Part shown: piece by piece, positions 34,423-43,514 of the stretch
Layout: each line of letters starts with the position of its first letter
How positions within the stretch are numbered: position 1 is the first letter of the stretch
Source: a virus
Lineage: Duplodnaviria; Caudoviricetes
IMG/VR virus record: IMGVR_UViG_3300032227_000993
Direction: 5' to 3' (one strand)
Length of the DNA stretch: 64,000 nt
Notes under the pieces: model-generated
Databases searched by the model: none
What the model saw: the letters and a program-made list of their open reading frames with translations, nothing else
Told to the model about the DNA's origin: nothing
Program-made: the position numbers and the translations under genes

Positions 34423-35037
34423 TTAAGGATTGCTTGGTACTAAAGCCATTGTAATATTGCCAGTACCATTAGTAAATGTTACTGCATCTGCGCCAGATTT
34501 AGCTGTGGTTACTACCACGTTGCTGGCTGGTTGGAAGAAGTTAACAAAATACTGTACATTATCGTAGCCTAAACCGTATTTGTTGGTCAAACGCTGTAAA
34601 TTTACGTTACCCACGTTGCCTGCTCCGTCTGGAACGCTTACGTTGATGCTCATTTGGTTCACAGTTAAACTACCGTTGGCCACGTCAGCCAAGAAAGCCA
34701 CGCCTGTAACACCAGAAGTCACGCCAGTAACCAGGTACTTGCTTTGGCCTTTTTGACGCACGATTAATGCTTCTTCGTTTTGTGTGCCATCAACGTTGGC
34801 AAATGTAGAAACTACCGGGAATGTAGCACTACCGCCATTTACGTCAACAGTACTGTTGTAAGCTGTTGTTTGTAGGTTTAAAATATTACCGCCAACTACG
34901 CCGTAAAATTGTGTGCCTGTTAAACCGCCAGGTGTAACTGGATCAGTTAATGTGTTGATCTGCGGAAAGCCAGCGTCAACTGCCAAGCCAGGTGTACCTG
35001 CATAGCCTTGTTTTTGAATTTTTAGTGGACGACCCAT
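34423..35037 (-). CDS. Probable virion protein (MGRPLK...) with own promoter, structured leader and terminator
   Basis: Strong AAGGAG SD; monocistronic layout. Confidence 0.7.
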   Translation of the reverse strand: MGRPLKIQKQGYAGTPGLAVDAGFPQINTLTDPVTPGGLTGTQFYGVVGGNILNLQTTAYNSTVDVNGGSATFPVVSTFANVDGTQNEEALIVRQKGQSKYLVTGVTSGVTGVAFLADVANGSLTVNQMSINVSVPDGAGNVGNVNLQRLTNKYGLGYDNVQYFVNFFQPASNVVVTTAKSGADAVTFTNGTGNITMALVPSNP

Positions 35038-36716: not shown

Positions 36717-37754
36717 TTATGACCAGTAAATGATCTCTTTGGTCGTTGGGTTGTATGCCATGTTAAAAAATCCTGCTGGCAAACTGCCGTTGACTATGGT
36801 ACGAATTGGTGCTACTACTAAAGTATTTGCTGTAGTGTTGTTTAAGTAAGTGCCAGTAGCGTTAAGAACAATACTATTATTTCCTTGTGCGTTAGCACCT
36901 GCTTGTGTTCCAATAGCAATAGCGTTAACACCTTGATTGTTTACTCCGGCTTCAAACCCAATAGCAATAGAAAGTTCGCCTTGTTCTACCGAAGCAGCAC
37001 TTGCGCCAATGGCAATAGCATTGGCACCTTGTGTATCATTGGCAGCGGCACGACCAACAGCAACAGCACCAACACCTTGATCAACTTGACCAGCAATGAA
37101 TCCAACAGCTACTCCGTCTTTTCCTTGAACGGAGCCGCCTGCTTGTTGACCAACCGATACAGCAGTTTCGCCTTGTTGAGCGGCTCCGGCGGCCGAACCA
37201 ATGGCAACAGCACCATCGCCCTGATCAGTGTGTGCGGCGTTTTGTCCAATGGCAATAGCAGCGTATCCTTGGTCGGTGTCGCCTACAAAGTTACCGATAG
37301 CGATTGCGCCATCTTTTTGGTCTGTTGTTCCAGCTTGTGAACCAATGGCAATGGCCAATTCCGCTTGATTTGTAACACCGGCGTTGGTACCAATAGCAAT
37401 AGTGGTATTACCTTGTGTGTTGGCACCAGCGTTGGTACCAATAGCAATAGCATTGGCGCCCTGAGCTGTGATATTGCCTGCTTCTTGGCCTAACGCGATC
37501 GTAGTAGGACCTGCAGCATTATTTTTGTCGCCTAAGGTAGCCCAGGTTGTTGCTCCGCCGCCACCGCTGATGGCAGTGAGTTGACCTAAGTTATTACCTA
37601 TGTAAAGTGCAGGAGGATCTACTACTAAATTAACCACTAACTCACCCGGTCTAGCATTGCCATCATAGTTTACAATGGTCTCTTGCGCATTGTCTTTCAT
37701 TACTGCGCGGCTAATGCCGGTAATATCTGAATATGGGGGTGGGTTGTTTGCCAT
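36717..37754 (-). CDS. Fibre-like protein with YadA/Hep-Hag-type 15-residue repeats (start revised to ATG 37754)
   Basis: About 14 tandem QGxxAIAIGxxAG units; TAAATA at 37778-37783 and an AGGA SD precede ATG 37754. Confidence 0.75.
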   Translation of the reverse strand: MANNPPPYSDITGISRAVMKDNAQETIVNYDGNARPGELVVNLVVDPPALYIGNNLGQLTAISGGGGATTWATLGDKNNAAGPTTIALGQEAGNITAQGANAIAIGTNAGANTQGNTTIAIGTNAGVTNQAELAIAIGSQAGTTDQKDGAIAIGNFVGDTDQGYAAIAIGQNAAHTDQGDGAVAIGSAAGAAQQGETAVSVGQQAGGSVQGKDGVAVGFIAGQVDQGVGAVAVGRAAANDTQGANAIAIGASAASVEQGELSIAIGFEAGVNNQGVNAIAIGTQAGANAQGNNSIVLNATGTYLNNTTANTLVVAPIRTIVNGSLPAGFFNMAYNPTTKEIIYWS

Positions 37755-37797
37755 CTGGTGTCCTGTATGTTGTATTGTATTTAGTATTTGAGCCAAC

Positions 37798-37909
37798 AAA
37801 AAAGCACCCTTGGGTGCTTGATTGCGTTAATATTACCGAGTTATCCGACCCACCAGCCGAACGAGTTATACTCCGAACGGTCAGGAGTTTGCTTTGTTAC
37901 TAGTATTTA
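37798..37909 (-). ncRNA. Candidate ~100-nt small RNA with own late promoter and terminator
   Basis: TAAATA at 37904-37909; two hairpins each followed by ATAACTCG; gcaccc-tt-gggtgc plus U6 terminator; no ATG inside. Confidence 0.5.
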
Positions 37910-37957
37910 GTGGGTACTAGACAAGCCCAATAAAAACTTTAAAAAGTCAATTGCAAT

Positions 37958-38266
37958 TCACCTAGATTTTGCAATTTCATCTTTGACTTCGTTGTATGTT
38001 CGAATTATCTGTAGAGTCGGTGTAACCAATTTATTAGTGTAAGGGGTAGACATTGTCTGCCATTCTTCTTCACTGACCGAACTAATAACCATGATTGAAT
38101 ACTCGTGTCCGTCAGCGGTGTGCAGTTTTACTGTGTCAAAACCCAAGCCAGACTGACTTGCTGTGAGTAGTGCTTTACCTAGCTCTTTTAATGCGGCTTT
38201 TTCGCCTACTATGTAGGCGGTTGTTTGCGGTTCGTCGTGCGGGTATAGATGTAATCTTGATTTCAT
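37958..38266 (-). CDS. Hypothetical protein, 102 aa, coupled to the DnaE-like gene
   Basis: ATGA overlap at 38263-38266. Confidence 0.7.
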   Translation of the reverse strand: MKSRLHLYPHDEPQTTAYIVGEKAALKELGKALLTASQSGLGFDTVKLHTADGHEYSIMVISSVSEEEWQTMSTPYTNKLVTPTLQIIRTYNEVKDEIAKSR

Positions 38267-39936
38267 TGTATATGGGCAATTTCTTTCAAAGTCAATTTTT
38301 TACTTTTATAAACTTTAACACATTCTGATCTATTTGTATAGTCCAATTTGCCCTTTCCCCATAATATTGGACTGTCGTGGAATTTGGCCGCATAAGGCAA
38401 CATGACGTCTAAATAACGACCGTTGCCTGTGCCCAGAGTCACAAAGGTCACATGATTTTTAGGGCCACTACGAAACACACGATAGTTAGCCACCAGCCCT
38501 AAAAATTCAACTTGTCCAGGTGTGCGTACTTCGGTACAGGCCGGTATGAATCGCTCACTGGACCAGCGTCCGGTAGCGGCCAGCTCAGCACATTCGCCGC
38601 CGGTGGTTATGCTGGGCACAGCGCCGGCCAGTTTGGCTTCTTGCCAGTAGACCCAGCGACTGTAACTGCCTTGACAGTGGCGCAGGCAAGCAGACCAAAA
38701 TGCCTCAGGGTTGTGTGCCTTGTGATAGGCCAAGGCCCAGATCAGTCGCCCCAGATTGGTGGCATGAGCACGGCACAGACCAAAGTGACTGAGCTCACGC
38801 AGGGCCGATAGTACAGCATCGCGCCGGGGGTGATCGCCAATCAACTGCATAAACTCATAGATTTTTTCTTCATTTTTCTTGGCAAATGCTCGGCGCCACA
38901 TATCGGCGGTGTATTGGTCACATTGCAGAATTTGGCTGATCAGCTGGATTGCGTCATCTTCAAACACTATGGTACCGTCTAGAGTGTCTTGACTGAAATC
39001 TTGAAAGGCCGACGCTTTGCGGCGTCCTTGTGTGGCCACGGGTCGTATCAGGGCCGTGGCCAAGGTACAATCGCTTTTACTAGAGACTCTAAGTGCGCGG
39101 AAAAGTCGTTTCATAGCAGGACTTTCGCCTTGTGTTACTCCTAACACATCACCGCGTGCCAATAACGCACTGGTAGCTTCGTCATATTCTGGATAATCAG
39201 CCAGTGGCCGTTGATCTATGTCCCATAGCTGGCTTAATCCACGATTGGCCAGGATGTCTATTTTGAAATGTTCAAGATCTTCTACTTCATATTTGTCTAG
39301 TAAGATCTGATTTTCGCCATTGATTAAACTTCGAGGAACAGCACGATCAAATATTATAATACCGCCGCAATGCTTTGATATACAACGTTTTTTACCTAGC
39401 AATTTATTAGTTATTCTGTTGGCTTCGGCTATTTCTTCTGGGGGTAATACTTGATCAAATTCAAATCCTCGTTTTAGTGTGCCTTTGGCACCTAATCTTT
39501 TGGCAGCCTCTCTACGAGCCGATTTTTCTTTGTACATGACATAGTTGCTGACTCTAGCACTTTGACCAGGCCAACGATGGAATATGCGATTCATTACCGT
39601 GGCCTGTTGCCAATGCGGAAAGTCTAAATCAATATCAGGCAAATCATCTCGTTTAGGATTCATGAAACGAGCCAAGGGTATGCGTTCAGCAACCGGATCT
39701 ATGTCACTAATGCCCATTAGCCAACATATCAAACTAGACCCTGCGCTACCTCTAGTGATATGTGGGATATCTCGAGTAAGATCAAGTATTTCTCTTACAC
39801 GTAAAAAATGTTTTGCAAAACCTAATTGTGCTACAAGTTCTAATTCTTCTTGTAATCTTATTTCATATTCTTCAATGTTGGGTAGGGGTCTAGTAAATTT
39901 TTTAATTAAAGTTTCAAGCGGTTCATATCTGTCCAT
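38263..39936 (-). CDS. dnaE: Compact C-family DNA polymerase (DnaE alpha-like) lacking the PHP domain
   Basis: RGSAGSSL, RFMNPKRDDLPDIDLDF, SKHCGG, FKIDIL and RAHA motifs; OB-like C-terminus; begins at the YEIRLQEEL helix that follows the PHP domain in full-length DnaE. Confidence 0.9.
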   Translation of the reverse strand: MDRYEPLETLIKKFTRPLPNIEEYEIRLQEELELVAQLGFAKHFLRVREILDLTRDIPHITRGSAGSSLICWLMGISDIDPVAERIPLARFMNPKRDDLPDIDLDFPHWQQATVMNRIFHRWPGQSARVSNYVMYKEKSARREAAKRLGAKGTLKRGFEFDQVLPPEEIAEANRITNKLLGKKRCISKHCGGIIIFDRAVPRSLINGENQILLDKYEVEDLEHFKIDILANRGLSQLWDIDQRPLADYPEYDEATSALLARGDVLGVTQGESPAMKRLFRALRVSSKSDCTLATALIRPVATQGRRKASAFQDFSQDTLDGTIVFEDDAIQLISQILQCDQYTADMWRRAFAKKNEEKIYEFMQLIGDHPRRDAVLSALRELSHFGLCRAHATNLGRLIWALAYHKAHNPEAFWSACLRHCQGSYSRWVYWQEAKLAGAVPSITTGGECAELAATGRWSSERFIPACTEVRTPGQVEFLGLVANYRVFRSGPKNHVTFVTLGTGNGRYLDVMLPYAAKFHDSPILWGKGKLDYTNRSECVKVYKSKKLTLKEIAHIQ

Positions 39937-40005
39937 GGATGCCTTTGGTGTGATGTTTTTTTTGATGCCTTACCAAGATATTTATTGACAGATATTTTGG
40001 TCAAC

Positions 40006-40029
40006 AAAAAACCTGCCAAAGCAGGTTTT
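40006..40029. terminator. Intrinsic terminator upstream of the dnaE promoter
   Basis: aaaaaacctgc-caaa-gcaggtttt. Confidence 0.8.
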
Positions 40030-40091
40030 CTAAAACAAAGTAATTCTCTGATTAAGAGAAAGACAAATTTTGAATGCCTTGCGGTGCTTGA

Positions 40092-41219
40092 TTATGCTCC
40101 AACAGGTGTTACAGTAACAATAATACTGGGACTTGCTGGATAGCCAACTGTGACATTTCCTGCCAGGGTTGGAAATCTAAAGTTAGTATTAGTTGCTGCA
40201 TAGGCTATTTCATAGTAGTCGCCAGCGGCGGTCACATTGGCCATGATATTCCAACTTTGGACTGTTTGAACAGTATTATCTAAAGTAAAAAATCCGCCTG
40301 TATCGGGAACGGCTGTGCCGTTTTTCTTGAACCATATGTATGCTGTAGAGCCGCCGCCGCCCACAGTTTTGTCAATCTGTGCGCTGAACTGGATGTTGTA
40401 CAAGCCAGTTTTATTAATAATAATACGACTGTTACTGGCACCTGTACCCAACTGTATATTATTGTGCCCGTCGGTATTGTTTAATAAAAAGTTATAGGCT
40501 GTGTTGGCCGAAGCTACAGTTTGTGTGAGATTACTCCAAAATTGTCCGTAAGCTGGTGTATAACTGATGTTGCCCGAAACTGATAAATTACCGAGTAAGG
40601 TCACATTACCAGTGGCTGGATCAGCATCATTAAATGGATCAATAATGATATCGCCAATACCGGCCACTGAGTTTGAAGATAGATACAACTCGTTGTCGGT
40701 GGTTGCCAAGGCTGAAGTGTTTACCAATGGTGTGGCAATGTTCACAGCTGAAAACAAAGTGTCGCCCAACACTGATAAGTTTCCACTGATTTCTGTAACA
40801 GTGGAACTGACAACTACAGAATTGTTGGAGCCGGCAATGTTGAGTGTGATATTGCCCGAGTTGGCCAGGGTAAGTGTGGTGTTGCCGGCTATTAGGTTTG
40901 CTTGTAATCCAGGAACCCCGTTGACTTGTAGTACGCCGTTGAAAACTGTAAGTTCAGCTGTGAGATTACTGGCCACATTTGAGTCGGTGATGTAAATTGT
41001 TCCTGGGCCTAGCCATAAGTTGGCCCAACGATTAGTGGCGTTGCCCAAGAAATAGGTGTTGTCAGCAGCAGGAGTAATGTTGCCAGCTGTGGTGTTTACA
41101 TAGGTTTTGAGTGTAGACCCACTCACGTGATATGTTGCGCCTGAGGAGTCAGTGGGCAACAATGACGTATCTGTCATGGTGGTTAAGTTAGGTAAGCCTG
41201 TGATATTTACGTTTGCCAT
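40092..41219 (-). CDS. Fibre/decoration protein with C1q/TNF-like (BclA-C-like) C-terminal domain
   Basis: SRIIINKTGLYNIQFSAQI...IWFKKNG...GDYYEI motif. Confidence 0.65.
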   Translation of the reverse strand: MANVNITGLPNLTTMTDTSLLPTDSSGATYHVSGSTLKTYVNTTAGNITPAADNTYFLGNATNRWANLWLGPGTIYITDSNVASNLTAELTVFNGVLQVNGVPGLQANLIAGNTTLTLANSGNITLNIAGSNNSVVVSSTVTEISGNLSVLGDTLFSAVNIATPLVNTSALATTDNELYLSSNSVAGIGDIIIDPFNDADPATGNVTLLGNLSVSGNISYTPAYGQFWSNLTQTVASANTAYNFLLNNTDGHNNIQLGTGASNSRIIINKTGLYNIQFSAQIDKTVGGGGSTAYIWFKKNGTAVPDTGGFFTLDNTVQTVQSWNIMANVTAAGDYYEIAYAATNTNFRFPTLAGNVTVGYPASPSIIVTVTPVGA

Positions 41220-41231
41220 TTTATTTTTCCG

Positions 41232-41381
41232 TTAAAGTGTTACCAAGTCATCGCCAGAAAGCGTGACCAGTTGGTCGCCAGCAAGCGTAACAAGATTTTG
41301 AGGAGCAGGTGGGGTCACAGCAAAATTTCCAATGCTAATGCCGCCGCCAATTTCAATACCTCCACCTATCGCTATCGCCAT
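41232..41381 (-). CDS. 49-aa micro-protein (not in the ORF track)
   Basis: MAIAIGGGIEIGGGISIGNFAVTPPAPQNLVTLAGDQLVTLSGDDLVTL; TAAATA at 41407-41412 and an AGGA SD upstream. Confidence 0.7.
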   Translation of the reverse strand: MAIAIGGGIEIGGGISIGNFAVTPPAPQNLVTLAGDQLVTLSGDDLVTL

Positions 41382-41426
41382 GATTCGGATTCCTGTTATT
41401 ATATTGTATTTAGCTGTTTTTACAGT

Positions 41427-42200
41427 TTACACCGTGCCAGCGAGCGTAGGCGCTATAACGGGCTTATGTTTACACTTGTCGCCGTGAAAAGCGTTGTATC
41501 TTGCTTTGCTTGCTTGTACTGGGCAATACGGACATTGTATTTTTGTTTGGGTGTAATGTTTACCTTCTGCTATTAGTTTAGCTACGGTGGCACTAATAGC
41601 ATCGCCTTGCTTTTTAGGTTTAGCTTTTCCTTTTGTGCCTTTAGATATTGCGTCTCGCTGTTGTTTACTCATTGGGCCGCGGGCTTTTCCTTTAAGCGAT
41701 TTAGAAATATTTTCTTTTTGTTCAGCTGTTCTTTTTTGCCCGGTGCGTTTTGCTACACCTTTAGCAACAGACTCCGCACTCATTACTCTGCCCTCGGCTG
41801 CTTTTTTATTTTTTTCTATTTGGGCGACAGACGCTGGTACGCCTTTGTTATGAGCAGGGCGGCCTTTCATAGTAGCTGAATGTACTATTGAAAATTCTTT
41901 TTTAAGGTTCTCGTACACTCTGCTTGTAATTTTAGTTTCGTAGCGTTGAGTACAATGACCGTTGCGTTTCATTCCGTTTAACGCATAAATCATTTTTGCT
42001 CTTGCTTCGCCTTTTTGTGTTTTTACTAACAGCCAATGGCAAATAAAATGTTCCCTTGCTGTTAAATTTACTAAATTTTCTTTGTTATCACTCCCGCCCA
42101 AACTGACAGGAATAATATGGTGGCGTTCTGTGTAGCCATCTACGGTGCGTAGTTTAGCGTTTGATACAATAGAGTTATACCACTTTTCGTATTTGTTCAT
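41427..42200 (-). CDS. HNH homing endonuclease with NUMOD3-like repeats
   Basis: HHIIPVSLGGSD..ENLVNLTAREHFICHWLL; paralog of 5631..6305. Confidence 0.85.
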   Translation of the reverse strand: MNKYEKWYNSIVSNAKLRTVDGYTERHHIIPVSLGGSDNKENLVNLTAREHFICHWLLVKTQKGEARAKMIYALNGMKRNGHCTQRYETKITSRVYENLKKEFSIVHSATMKGRPAHNKGVPASVAQIEKNKKAAEGRVMSAESVAKGVAKRTGQKRTAEQKENISKSLKGKARGPMSKQQRDAISKGTKGKAKPKKQGDAISATVAKLIAEGKHYTQTKIQCPYCPVQASKARYNAFHGDKCKHKPVIAPTLAGTV

Positions 42201-42245
42201 AATAGTATTTAGTATAGTTTAACATTCACGTAATATTATGTCAAC

Positions 42246-42270
42246 AAAAAACCCACCGAAGTGGGTTTTT
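42246..42270. terminator. Intrinsic terminator after the major capsid gene
   Basis: aaaaaacccac-cgaa-gtgggttttt (UUCG tetraloop on the minus strand). Confidence 0.9.
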
Positions 42271-42317: not shown

Positions 42318-43514
42318 TTAACTAAACGAGAGGTTTTGTACCGCAATTTCACCAACATAGTCTGCTGCATTTCCAAAGGAACTGGCAGTATTCGTGAGTT
42401 CGACGAATCCGTAGCGTGTCATAAATGATACGACTGGTTCGAAAGTTGTTGGATCCAATACAACACCACTACTCATCAGGGGAATGTATGGGCAATAGAA
42501 CGCAGCGGCATCAGCCTCTGAAGAACCTTTGTAACCAACCAATACTGATTGTGTATCTGGAGCATAGCTGTTTACAAACACACGGAGTGCGCCATTCAAT
42601 GTACCAACAAACTTGGTGTTTGTAGGAGCTTCAAATGTGCCTTCTGTTGTGCGAGCAAAAGCACTAGTTGTAGCAGATTGCAATACTGTTAAAGCAGCTG
42701 AACTAACAACAGCCCAGTTACCAGCGCCACGACGTGTGCGCTGAGCGATCAAGTTAGCAACGCGGTTGATCAACACAGCCAAAGCTGCATGCTCATCACC
42801 CACGAATGTTGCTGTACCAGATACAGTAGCTTGGTTGTATGTGTACTCAGTAGCAGCCAAAGCACTCAATGACAAGAGGATCTCTTGGTCGATCTCAGCA
42901 GTAATTTCTTGTGCGAGAGCAGCCATGATTTCAGCTTCTACGTCAATACCGTGCATAGCTTGTGCGTCTTGAGCAGATTCAAATGTCCAACGAGCTTGTA
43001 ACTTACGTGTCTTTGCTTCAACAGCTTGTTTCAAGATCTGGATACTGATCTGCTTACCGCCTGTACCTTCCATTGTACTTGTGTTGTTACCAGTATAACC
43101 AGTAGCAGTTGTAGTACCTTGTGGAACTGTAGAGTATGCTGTAGCAATGGTGAATGGGCTTAGGGCTTCTTGACCAGCTGTTACAGATGTTGCGGCTAAA
43201 CTATTGTCAGTCAAAGACTGAGCATAGCGTACACGCAATGTGTGGATTTGGGATACTGGGCCAGTCATTGGCTGTACACCAACCAACTCGTTAGCGATAA
43301 CGGTTGGCATTACACGACGGATAACTGGAAGAATCACACGATTCAAAGTAGCGATGTTACCACTAGCTGTTGAACCTGCTGATGCGTTTTCTTTCAAATA
43401 CTTACGTGTGTTTTCGAGGATAACACTCATTGAGTTACGCTTAGAACCTTGCAAACCTTCTAAGAGTGCGTCTTTAGTGTCGCCCCAACGGCTTTCTAAT
43501 AAATCTTGTGACAT
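42318..43514 (-). CDS. gp23: Major capsid protein
   Basis: RRVMPTVIANELVGVQPMTGP, VEAKTRKLQARWT.E.AQD, FYCPYIPL motifs. Confidence 0.97.
   Translation of the reverse strand: MSQDLLESRWGDTKDALLEGLQGSKRNSMSVILENTRKYLKENASAGSTASGNIATLNRVILPVIRRVMPTVIANELVGVQPMTGPVSQIHTLRVRYAQSLTDNSLAATSVTAGQEALSPFTIATAYSTVPQGTTTATGYTGNNTSTMEGTGGKQISIQILKQAVEAKTRKLQARWTFESAQDAQAMHGIDVEAEIMAALAQEITAEIDQEILLSLSALAATEYTYNQATVSGTATFVGDEHAALAVLINRVANLIAQRTRRGAGNWAVVSSAALTVLQSATTSAFARTTEGTFEAPTNTKFVGTLNGALRVFVNSYAPDTQSVLVGYKGSSEADAAAFYCPYIPLMSSGVVLDPTTFEPVVSFMTRYGFVELTNTASSFGNAADYVGEIAVQNLSFS

Follow-up and report, generated by a model that had tools for sequence, protein, structure and literature searches.

The locus and the unit on its minus strand

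We analyzed a stretch of 64,000 nucleotides (nt), hereafter the window, from the virus record IMGVR_UViG_3300032227_000993 (Duplodnaviria; Caudoviricetes), and within it a short non-coding element at positions 37796 to 37909 of the minus strand, which is present in one copy and extends from a promoter-like box to a terminator. The element is found downstream of the gene for a T4-type major capsid protein (Gp23; 42318 to 43514, E = 1e-95), whose nearest cultured relatives belong to the jumbo phages Vibrio 2.275.O, Sinorhizobium Phosso and Pseudomonas PA5oct (66 to 67% amino-acid identity), and of a gene encoding an HNH endonuclease (41427 to 42200). Directly beside it sits a minus-strand block (37958 to 41412) comprising a 49-amino-acid open reading frame (ORF), a gene for a 375-amino-acid protein, a gene for a 557-amino-acid DnaE with a DNA_pol3_alpha and a finger domain (38263 to 39936) and the gene for its 102-amino-acid partner (37958 to 38266). 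On the other side, the element is followed by a gene for a 345-amino-acid tail-fibre-like protein (YadA_head and tail-spike PHROG matches; true ATG at 37754), a 106-amino-acid ORF and a convergent TPR/GT9 gene.

An earlier analysis of these letters without database searches (the sequence-only reading) had described the element as a stand-alone RNA built from a twice-repeated unit of a hairpin and an 8-mer. All the features it listed (box, hairpin 1, both copies of AUAACUCG, hairpin 2, and a GC stem with six U residues) are indeed present on the minus strand at the positions given. The unit starts with the box TAAATAC (37903 to 37909), which reads TAAGTAn in most relatives. This is followed by stem S1, ACUCC/GGAGU, with UGACCGUUC between its arms (37870 to 37888; the 9-nt loop is UGA plus CCGUUC), and by the first AUAACUCG copy (37869 to 37862), which coincides with an A-rich linker, L3 (37869 to 37863). 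The six variable loop bases (37880 to 37875) face the six bases at 37862 to 37857 to form a second predicted stem, S2 (37857 to 37880), and L3 separates S1 from the 3' strand of S2. Aligning the variants described below further delimited an invariant G-rich 13-mer, GCUGGUGGGUCGG (37845 to 37857), which lies within the hairpin 2 of the sequence-only reading, UUCGGC-UGGUGG-GUCGGA (37861 to 37844). A variable A/U-rich spacer (37820 to 37844), which in the window includes the second AUAACUCG copy (37844 to 37837), leads to an intrinsic terminator detected by a terminator scan (37796 to 37819). The latter reads AGCACCC-AAG-GGUGCU plus six U residues (GC stem at 37819 to 37802) and runs on as TTTTTTGTTGGC. 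A second TAAATAC box (37777 to 37783) lies outside the predicted RNA, ahead of the tail-fibre-like gene.

Taken by themselves, the statistics within the window are weak, and it is the comparison across variants that decides. AUAACUCG occurs twice in 64 kb, both times in the element, compared to 1.1 copies expected, and at least two copies were obtained in 30 of 100 shuffles. The minimum-free-energy fold of the element gave a z-score of -2.0 relative to shuffled sequences. No tRNA or tmRNA was present, and no Rfam family matched the element, whether the gathering threshold was applied or E-values of up to 10 were admitted; the best hit in the 301-nt region around it scored 18.5 bits against a threshold of 50. 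The only Rfam family that passed its threshold in the window lies away from the element. This is a freshwater-2 RNA (RF02980; 35035 to 35125, minus strand; 57.8 bits, gathering score 49.9), located directly after a CTAAATAC box (35137 to 35130) and before a gene for a 204-amino-acid protein (34423 to 35037), and it appears to be a second structured RNA of the same hyperplastic region.

Conservation and folding of the element

An exact 19-mer scan recovered the element at two loci, L278 and L279, and it also turned up in the regions upstream of tail genes at L202 and L221. A pattern built from these sequences then matched 7 viral contigs and 14 contigs from metagenomes. In all, 14 distinct variants were obtained, from viral and freshwater metagenome contigs. 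Their shared layout is a TAA(A/G)TA box, then a hairpin of 5 bp and an A-rich linker, then GCUGGUGGGUCGG and an A/U-rich spacer, and lastly a terminator (in 13 of 14 variants). In the alignment, S1 is CUCC/GGAG with a closing A-U pair, followed by the loop with UGA and six variable bases. The A-rich linker of 7 to 8 nt comes next, and after it six bases complementary to the variable part of the loop and an invariant block written (G)CUGGUGGGUCGG. The 13-mer is unchanged in 12 of the 14 variants, including matches obtained with a scan that fixed only GCTG. Conservation extends to hairpin 1, to the region of the first 8-mer, which takes the form of an A-rich linker, to the 3' arm of hairpin 2 and to the terminator. 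The spacer differs among variants in both length and sequence.

The exact pattern had no match in 185,579 representative genomes of bacteria and archaea. Among cultured phages, a 3.3-kb blastn query had no match and a query with the 75-nt core returned only chance matches of 26 nt. A loose pattern, ATAACTCG-N(10-30)-ATAACTCG, gave at least 117 chance matches in viral contigs, none of them homologous. A single copy was found in the 228-kb contig G001, the sole large contig searched for copy number (two other records are fragments of 6.6 and 18 kb). We consider it most likely that the element is a conserved module of a clade of jumbo myoviruses, uncultured and from freshwater, that have a T4-type (Gp23) capsid gene. 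It is a candidate new RNA family, of a general kind that is already known.

The alignment predicts that the loop of hairpin 1 and the six bases after the linker pair to form an H-type pseudoknot, with S1 of 5 bp, a loop L1 of 3 nt, S2 of 6 bp and an A-rich L3 of 7 to 8 nt. The S1 arms are complementary in 14 of 14 variants (one with a G-U pair) and also in a scan that left S1 free. The support for S1 is this complementarity, since S1 never varies and hence shows no covariation; assignment to the pseudoknot class comes through covariation in S2. Compensatory changes were found in three S2 pairs, alignment columns 31-52 (CG in 7 variants, UA in 6, UG in 1), 32-51 (GC in 8, UA in 4, CG in 1) and 35-48 (CG in 11, UA in 3), and the six S2 haplotypes require at least four independent double substitutions. 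The covariation score and paired fraction of S2 were reached by none of 500 shuffles, and the score (0.270) exceeded that of all slid controls (at most 0.057). S2 is mismatched in one variant, L292.

Hairpin 2 behaves differently. It can form in the window's own variant, but in some variants five of its six pairs are broken, and not a single compensatory change was found. Moreover, it uses the same 5' arm as S2, and this arm covaries with the loop of hairpin 1. As the second AUAACUCG copy is also restricted to the window, neither the twice-repeated design nor the two equivalent sites of the sequence-only reading survived the comparison. A third pairing, which excludes the others, joins the loop bases CUGAC(C) to (G)GUCGG in the 3' half of the 13-mer and adds three further pairs. 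It is 98% compatible across variants and shows no covariation, its partner strand, the 13-mer, being invariant. The variable columns 31 and 35 switch only between C and U, which fits both the third helix and S2, and the RNA may be bistable. A G-quadruplex in the 13-mer was discarded, as the first G run is not conserved (AG in six variants in the alignment read by eye).

Several lines of evidence indicate that the unit is non-coding. There is no ATG inside it in the window, most variants have no ATG, GTG or TTG start in a conserved frame, stops occur in several frames, and the substitution pattern is not codon-like. This is in agreement with the sequence-only reading, which saw a self-contained non-coding unit between a promoter-like box and a terminator, and this arrangement is conserved in the 14 variants. 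We also considered that the knot might serve translation, either as a recoding signal (a stop or slippery site followed by a pseudoknot) or as part of a micro-peptide gene. A frame reading TPD..E...WWVG is open in 13 of the 14 variants, and the TAA of the box lies in that frame about 9 nt before the knot, resembling read-through signals. However, apart from the missing start codons, L280 has an in-frame stop inside the knot, only 2 of the 14 loci tabulated have an upstream ORF that stops at the box, and no ORF precedes it in L285 and L291. Furthermore, substitutions are not biased toward third positions and are explained by base-pair compensation. On the start-codon, stop and substitution evidence, recoding and a micro-ORF were both rejected as next to impossible.

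The same base-pair changes bear on whether the element acts as DNA, for instance as a Chi-like recombination hotspot, as a target for homing by the neighboring HNH endonuclease or as part of shuffling cassettes. The invariant 13-mer does contain the exact Escherichia coli Chi octamer GCTGGTGG, and the element lies at cassette junctions: HNH is its neighbor, segments have been inserted to either side, L292 has a partial duplicate, and an inversion has occurred (see below). Cassette shuffling of PeSL type has been documented in T4-like phages (PMC4122927, PMC2839356). Nevertheless, the compensatory changes, together with G-U pairs that occur in S2 only on the minus strand, point to selection on a folded single strand. 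The octamer is not over-represented under a higher-order Markov background (12 observed versus 9.5 expected, z = 0.83, rank 495). It is also not strictly conserved: L278 carries GCTGTTGG, which breaks the octamer and keeps the rest. A Chi hotspot was rejected on these two grounds. Finally, unlike a homing site, the element is identical with and without the HNH gene. A signal at the DNA level thus appears very improbable.

Boxes, cassettes and an apparently autonomous unit

The box that opens the element belongs to a motif that recurs in the window. CTAAATAC is found in 12 copies compared to 2.6 expected, and 14 of 21 CTAAATA copies fall in the 7% of the window that is intergenic, 11 to 38 nt upstream of start codons. 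By its distribution, (C)TAAATA(C) is to be regarded as a genuine regulatory motif, and we infer that it has promoter activity. It resembles the T4 late-promoter core TATAAATA. A TAA(A/G)TA box precedes the element in 13 of the 14 variants (L287 has TAAGAT), and the spacing between box and stem is 7 nt in 11 of 14 variants and 16 nt in the window. At the 3' end, 13 of 14 variants have a GC hairpin with a U tract; the stems covary, and their sequences are unrelated. In four relatives of the DnaE clade (L003, L004, L013 and L037), TAAATACT(A/C)GATG occurs about 30 nt after the 102-amino-acid gene, so placed that the box lies only 3 to 4 nt before the ATG of the next gene; the same arrangement is seen at 42200 and 5631 of the window. 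The opening residues of that next gene (...SDVHLGTKDC...) look metallophosphoesterase/LpxH-like by eye. Such a position of the box would imply leaderless or near-leaderless late mRNAs.

Terminators and boxes are also combined. A hairpin followed by TTTTTGTTGRC and a (C)TAAATA box was found three times on the minus strand of the window (37792 to 37802, 40000 to 40010 and 42240 to 42250), compared to 0.24 expected. These three terminator-promoter cassettes bracket the HNH, the 49-/375-amino-acid and the DnaE/102-amino-acid modules, and one of them is made up of the element's own terminator, TTTTTTGTTGGC and the following TAAATA box. Similar cassettes were seen in L202, L280, L285 and L289. In T4-like phages, composite promoter-terminator cassettes called PeSLs mediate modular shuffling (Arbiol 2010, PMC2839356; Comeau 2014, PMC4122927). 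Like PeSLs, the cassettes on the side of the element flank variable modules, and indels, a duplication and an inversion are found at these junctions. The resemblance extends to the 3' terminator part of the element and not to the knot and the 13-mer. Indeed, unlike generic PeSL repeats, the pseudoknot with its 13-mer is single-copy and specifically conserved, with covariation at the RNA level. In addition, the boxes described here look like late rather than early promoters.

We then compared the surroundings of the element with those of DnaE. The sequence-only reading had placed the RNA directly behind the DnaE cassette and had proposed that, with its two equivalent sites, it could be a protein sponge or decoy, an antitoxin, or a primer/template partner for the polymerase, which lacks a PHP domain, and the 102-amino-acid protein. 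The adjacency is real in this genome: the junction between the 102-amino-acid gene and the element recurs in a contig from a different study, which spans 37794 to 38052 with 6 differences, and is thus not an assembly artefact. Elsewhere the two do not go together. We identified 80 loci with DnaE relatives (55 to 83% amino-acid identity), nearly all of which keep the 102-amino-acid partner (about 45% identity), and blastn, nhmmer and a covariance model detected the element in none of the 80; the expected linkage with dnaE-bearing relatives therefore fails. The region 3' of the 102-amino-acid gene is hypervariable among these loci. Conversely, no DnaE was seen in the sequence around the element in 13 of the 14 variants, some of these contigs being short, and none was detectable in the 228 kb of G001, which carries the element. 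There are also no tandem repeats and no adjacent toxin gene, as a ToxI-type antitoxin would require, and the second site is not conserved. The idea that the RNA is a partner of DnaE is therefore close to refuted, while the small-RNA part of the earlier proposal is supported by the conservation and autonomy of the unit.

L278 and L279 suggest how the two came to be neighbors. Over 3.6 kb of the gp23-HNH region they are 82% identical to the window, yet the stop codon of HNH leads straight into the element, with no DnaE block in between. One weak joint, linking 37819 to 41407 (side 26), would fit a relative without the cassette. Because L278 and L279 lack it and terminator-promoter cassettes bracket the modules, the DnaE/102-amino-acid cassette, like the whole block at 37958 to 41412, reads as an insertion between the HNH gene and a pre-existing RNA unit. 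By this comparison, the element appears unrelated to the PHP-less DnaE cassette, and their adjacency would stem from cassette shuffling. Two further observations concern this boundary. The conserved HNH C-terminal peptide (...YARWHGVNCKNS*) is encoded at 41406 to 41470 (minus strand) in another frame than the ORF at 41427 to 42200 and ends in the TAA of a TAAATAC box at 41412, so that the 3' end of the HNH gene appears frameshifted relative to L278, L280 and L281. Directly after HNH, the Gly/Ile-rich, repetitive 49-amino-acid ORF (MAIAIGGGIEIGGGISIG...; 41232 to 41381, minus strand) has its own TAAATAC box and ribosome-binding site, and no family match was found for it.

Other loci bear on the autonomy of the element. 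Between L288 and L290, whose flanks are 94% and 90% identical, the element of about 130 nt is inverted in place (L288:3492-3621 versus L290:1043-1184, in coordinates of the oriented sub-sequences and not of the loci). In the alignment both flanks are in reverse orientation and the element is forward, with the unit intact and carrying its own compensated S2 haplotype. L292 contains a partial duplicate (L292:640-734) consisting of the HNH 3' end, a TAAGTAT box and the S1 hairpin followed by unrelated sequence. This duplicate borders an insertion and is separated by 1.2 kb from the full element downstream of it. In L285 and L291, gp23 is followed by terminator-TTTTTTGTTGGC, box, element and terminator, so that the element stands between two terminators and its box occupies the promoter slot of the cassette. 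Owing to the in-place inversion and the cassette insertions on either side, the element appears to be selected as an autonomous unit.

This autonomy has to be weighed against a role in cis at the end of the late operon that contains the capsid gene gp23 and, in some cases, HNH, where the element would be a structured 3' untranslated tail or insulator rather than a separate RNA, stabilizing the upstream mRNA or enforcing termination between convergent units. Its position downstream of gp23 or HNH is conserved, the inverted element of L288 again directly follows an ORF, and the TAA of the box is sometimes the stop codon of the upstream gene. Moreover, where a convergent gene follows, and exactly there, the terminator stem is preceded by an A tract and is hence bidirectional. 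On the other hand, L285 and L291 already have a full terminator upstream of the element, and the upstream gene differs by locus (HNH, gp23, a C92 peptidase, the 102-amino-acid protein or the TPR/GT9 gene). The distance to the upstream stop codon is not fixed either, ranging from 9 to 104 nt, and the fixed spacing between box and stem is promoter-like. We regard this explanation as unlikely, although the most probable of the alternatives to a stand-alone RNA.

A role in cis on the downstream side was considered as well. As an attenuator, a bistable RNA could respond to a ligand or a protein by switching between the pseudoknot and the long hairpin, in which the 13-mer is hidden, and thereby govern read-through into the following late gene (for instance one for a tail fibre or an auxiliary metabolic gene). 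The existence of two conserved pairings that exclude each other, with columns 31 and 35 restricted to C and U, would suit this, and a co-directional gene comes next in the window, L202, L289, L293, L280 and L291. However, these co-directional genes have their own TAAATA box past the terminator; in the window, the box at 37783 to 37777 would serve the tail-fibre-like gene, in agreement with the sequence-only reading that the unit is not the leader of the next gene. The spacer leading up to the terminator varies and contains no conserved anti-terminator, and no riboswitch family matched. The downstream genes are mutually unrelated (tail-fibre-like, a Laminin_G_3 protein, a bilin reductase or the convergent TPR/GT9 gene), and in about six variants the convergent gene is the only thing downstream. 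Since the downstream genes differ or are convergent, the element does not appear to be the leader of one particular gene, and an attenuator seems distinctly unlikely to us. L221 and L286 are exceptions, where the element would be a direct 5' leader. The gene in question (L221:2190-2956, the same as in L286) is ferredoxin-dependent bilin-reductase-like (Fe_bilin_red, E = 5e-10), an apparent auxiliary metabolic gene in a context that does not look like that of a cyanophage.

A putative trans-acting RNA and comparable systems

Overall, we put the odds at about even (roughly 0.5) that the element is a stand-alone RNA of about 95 to 105 nt, probably late, whose 5' pseudoknot presents the 13-mer for action in trans and whose terminator also stops late units. 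We infer a discrete transcript, activity in trans and a role of the 13-mer. Transcription would start from the phage box (TAAATA or TAAGTA) at or just before the 5' hairpin. In the growing chain, the hairpin loop would pair with the six bases past the A-rich linker and yield a compact H-type pseudoknot, which would stabilize the RNA at its 5' end and present the invariant GCUGGUGGGUCGG, followed by the A/U-rich spacer. The strong intrinsic terminator would then release the RNA and may double as a stop between neighboring or convergent late operons. The 13-mer would be the working surface in trans, either as a base-pairing seed or as a protein-binding site. The region downstream of gp23 would be a hot spot of cassette shuffling, in which the DnaE/102-amino-acid module was inserted between HNH and the RNA.

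Several observations speak against such an RNA. Regarding its start, the box of most variants is TAAGTA instead of the window's TAAATA consensus, and the intergenic enrichment of TAAGTA is no more than mild (4 of 25). Several loci have the element 13 to 70 nt after an upstream ORF, so that read-through is possible, and in L221 and L286 it lacks a terminator and continues into the ribosome-binding site of the bilin-reductase-like gene. Regarding its fold, the search patterns partly fixed S1 and the 13-mer, so that their invariance is partly by construction, and the two phylogeny-robust count measures for S2 fell short of significance, being reached by 165 and 318 of 500 shuffles. Two of the six S2 pairs are U-U mismatches in the variant encountered most often, to which the window belongs, and nearest-neighbor energies in the window's variant favor hairpin 2 or the alternative long hairpin. 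Finally, RNAduplex revealed no significant target of the 13-mer among all translation start regions of the window: the best energy was -21.5 kcal/mol, compared to an average of -18.7 and a 5th percentile of -21.9 for shuffled seeds.

One family of genes nevertheless deserves mention as a possible target. The tail-fibre-like protein next to the element belongs to a multi-copy family with the near-invariant N terminus MANPPPPY(D/S)(N/D)ITGISR (37709 to 37754 of the window, minus strand; L198 to L277). We collected 65 distinct gene starts, which mostly read CCA CCA CCA CCA, and some contigs carry two paralogues. In these 65 starts, UGGUGGG of the 13-mer is complementary over 6 to 7 nt to the CCA-CCN-CCA run of proline codons 4 to 7, and the gene just downstream of the element in the window includes this run. 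Considering this complementarity together with the C/U columns that suit both helices, one could imagine a bistable late small RNA, carried on an invertible and shufflable unit, whose pseudoknot exposes the 13-mer and whose long hairpin masks it via CUGAC, so that UGGUGGG selects which fibre paralogues are translated. This is a long shot. The UGGUGGG match is statistically indistinguishable from chance, and the 228-kb contig that bears the element has no MANPPPPY fibre gene. The fibre gene was also dropped as a partner in cis, as it lies near only 3 of the 14 variants, at loci that had been found through that gene.

We next compared the element with known systems. DicF and lambda OOP are trans-acting small RNAs of phages or prophages, in which a structured or seed part at the 5' end is combined with a Rho-independent terminator, and T4 encodes the stable RNAs C and D, whose function is unknown. 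Like these RNAs, the element is about 100 nt long, has no ORF, and combines a promoter-like box and a conserved single-stranded block with a tract rich in A and U and a terminator whose hairpin ends in a U tail. It differs from them in that there is no sequence or Rfam similarity and in that its predicted 5' end is an H-type pseudoknot. The non-coding RNAs of PA5oct (236 to 619 nt; PMC7318152) were rejected as counterparts, their size and genome positions being different and not comparable.

As for the knot itself, the autoregulatory pseudoknot of the T4 gene 32 mRNA is of the H type and is followed by an unstructured A/U-rich region (PMC3014915, PMC10690425). The element is similarly small, with an A-rich third loop and an A/U-rich tract after the knot, and it also occurs in phages with a T4-type capsid. 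However, it does not lie upstream of a homolog of the single-stranded DNA-binding protein gp32, its neighbors vary, and a terminator rather than a ribosome-binding site follows, except in L221. With the preQ1-I and SAM-II riboswitches it shares a compact H-type knot, an A-rich linker, highly conserved nucleotides and a terminator after the knot. Unlike these, it has no covariance-model match at E-values up to 10, no conserved anti-terminator and no consistent downstream gene, a convergent one being frequent. Lastly, the element resembles the type III antitoxin RNAs (ToxI-like) as a phage-associated RNA predicted to form a pseudoknot, but it is single per locus and per large contig and has no ToxN-like neighbor. 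A tandem repeat array is likewise absent, the second unit being confined to the window.

These data correct the attractive but wrong inference that links the RNA to an unusual PHP-less DnaE cassette. They also point to terminator-promoter cassettes of PeSL type that bracket this cassette in a lineage outside the classical T4 group. What the element offers is a well-defined experimental target rather than a solved mechanism. Very few small RNAs are known from lytic jumbo and T4-type phages, and almost none from uncultured freshwater phages. With its compact covarying pseudoknot, invariant 13-mer, box and terminator, the element represents a clean candidate family for this group.

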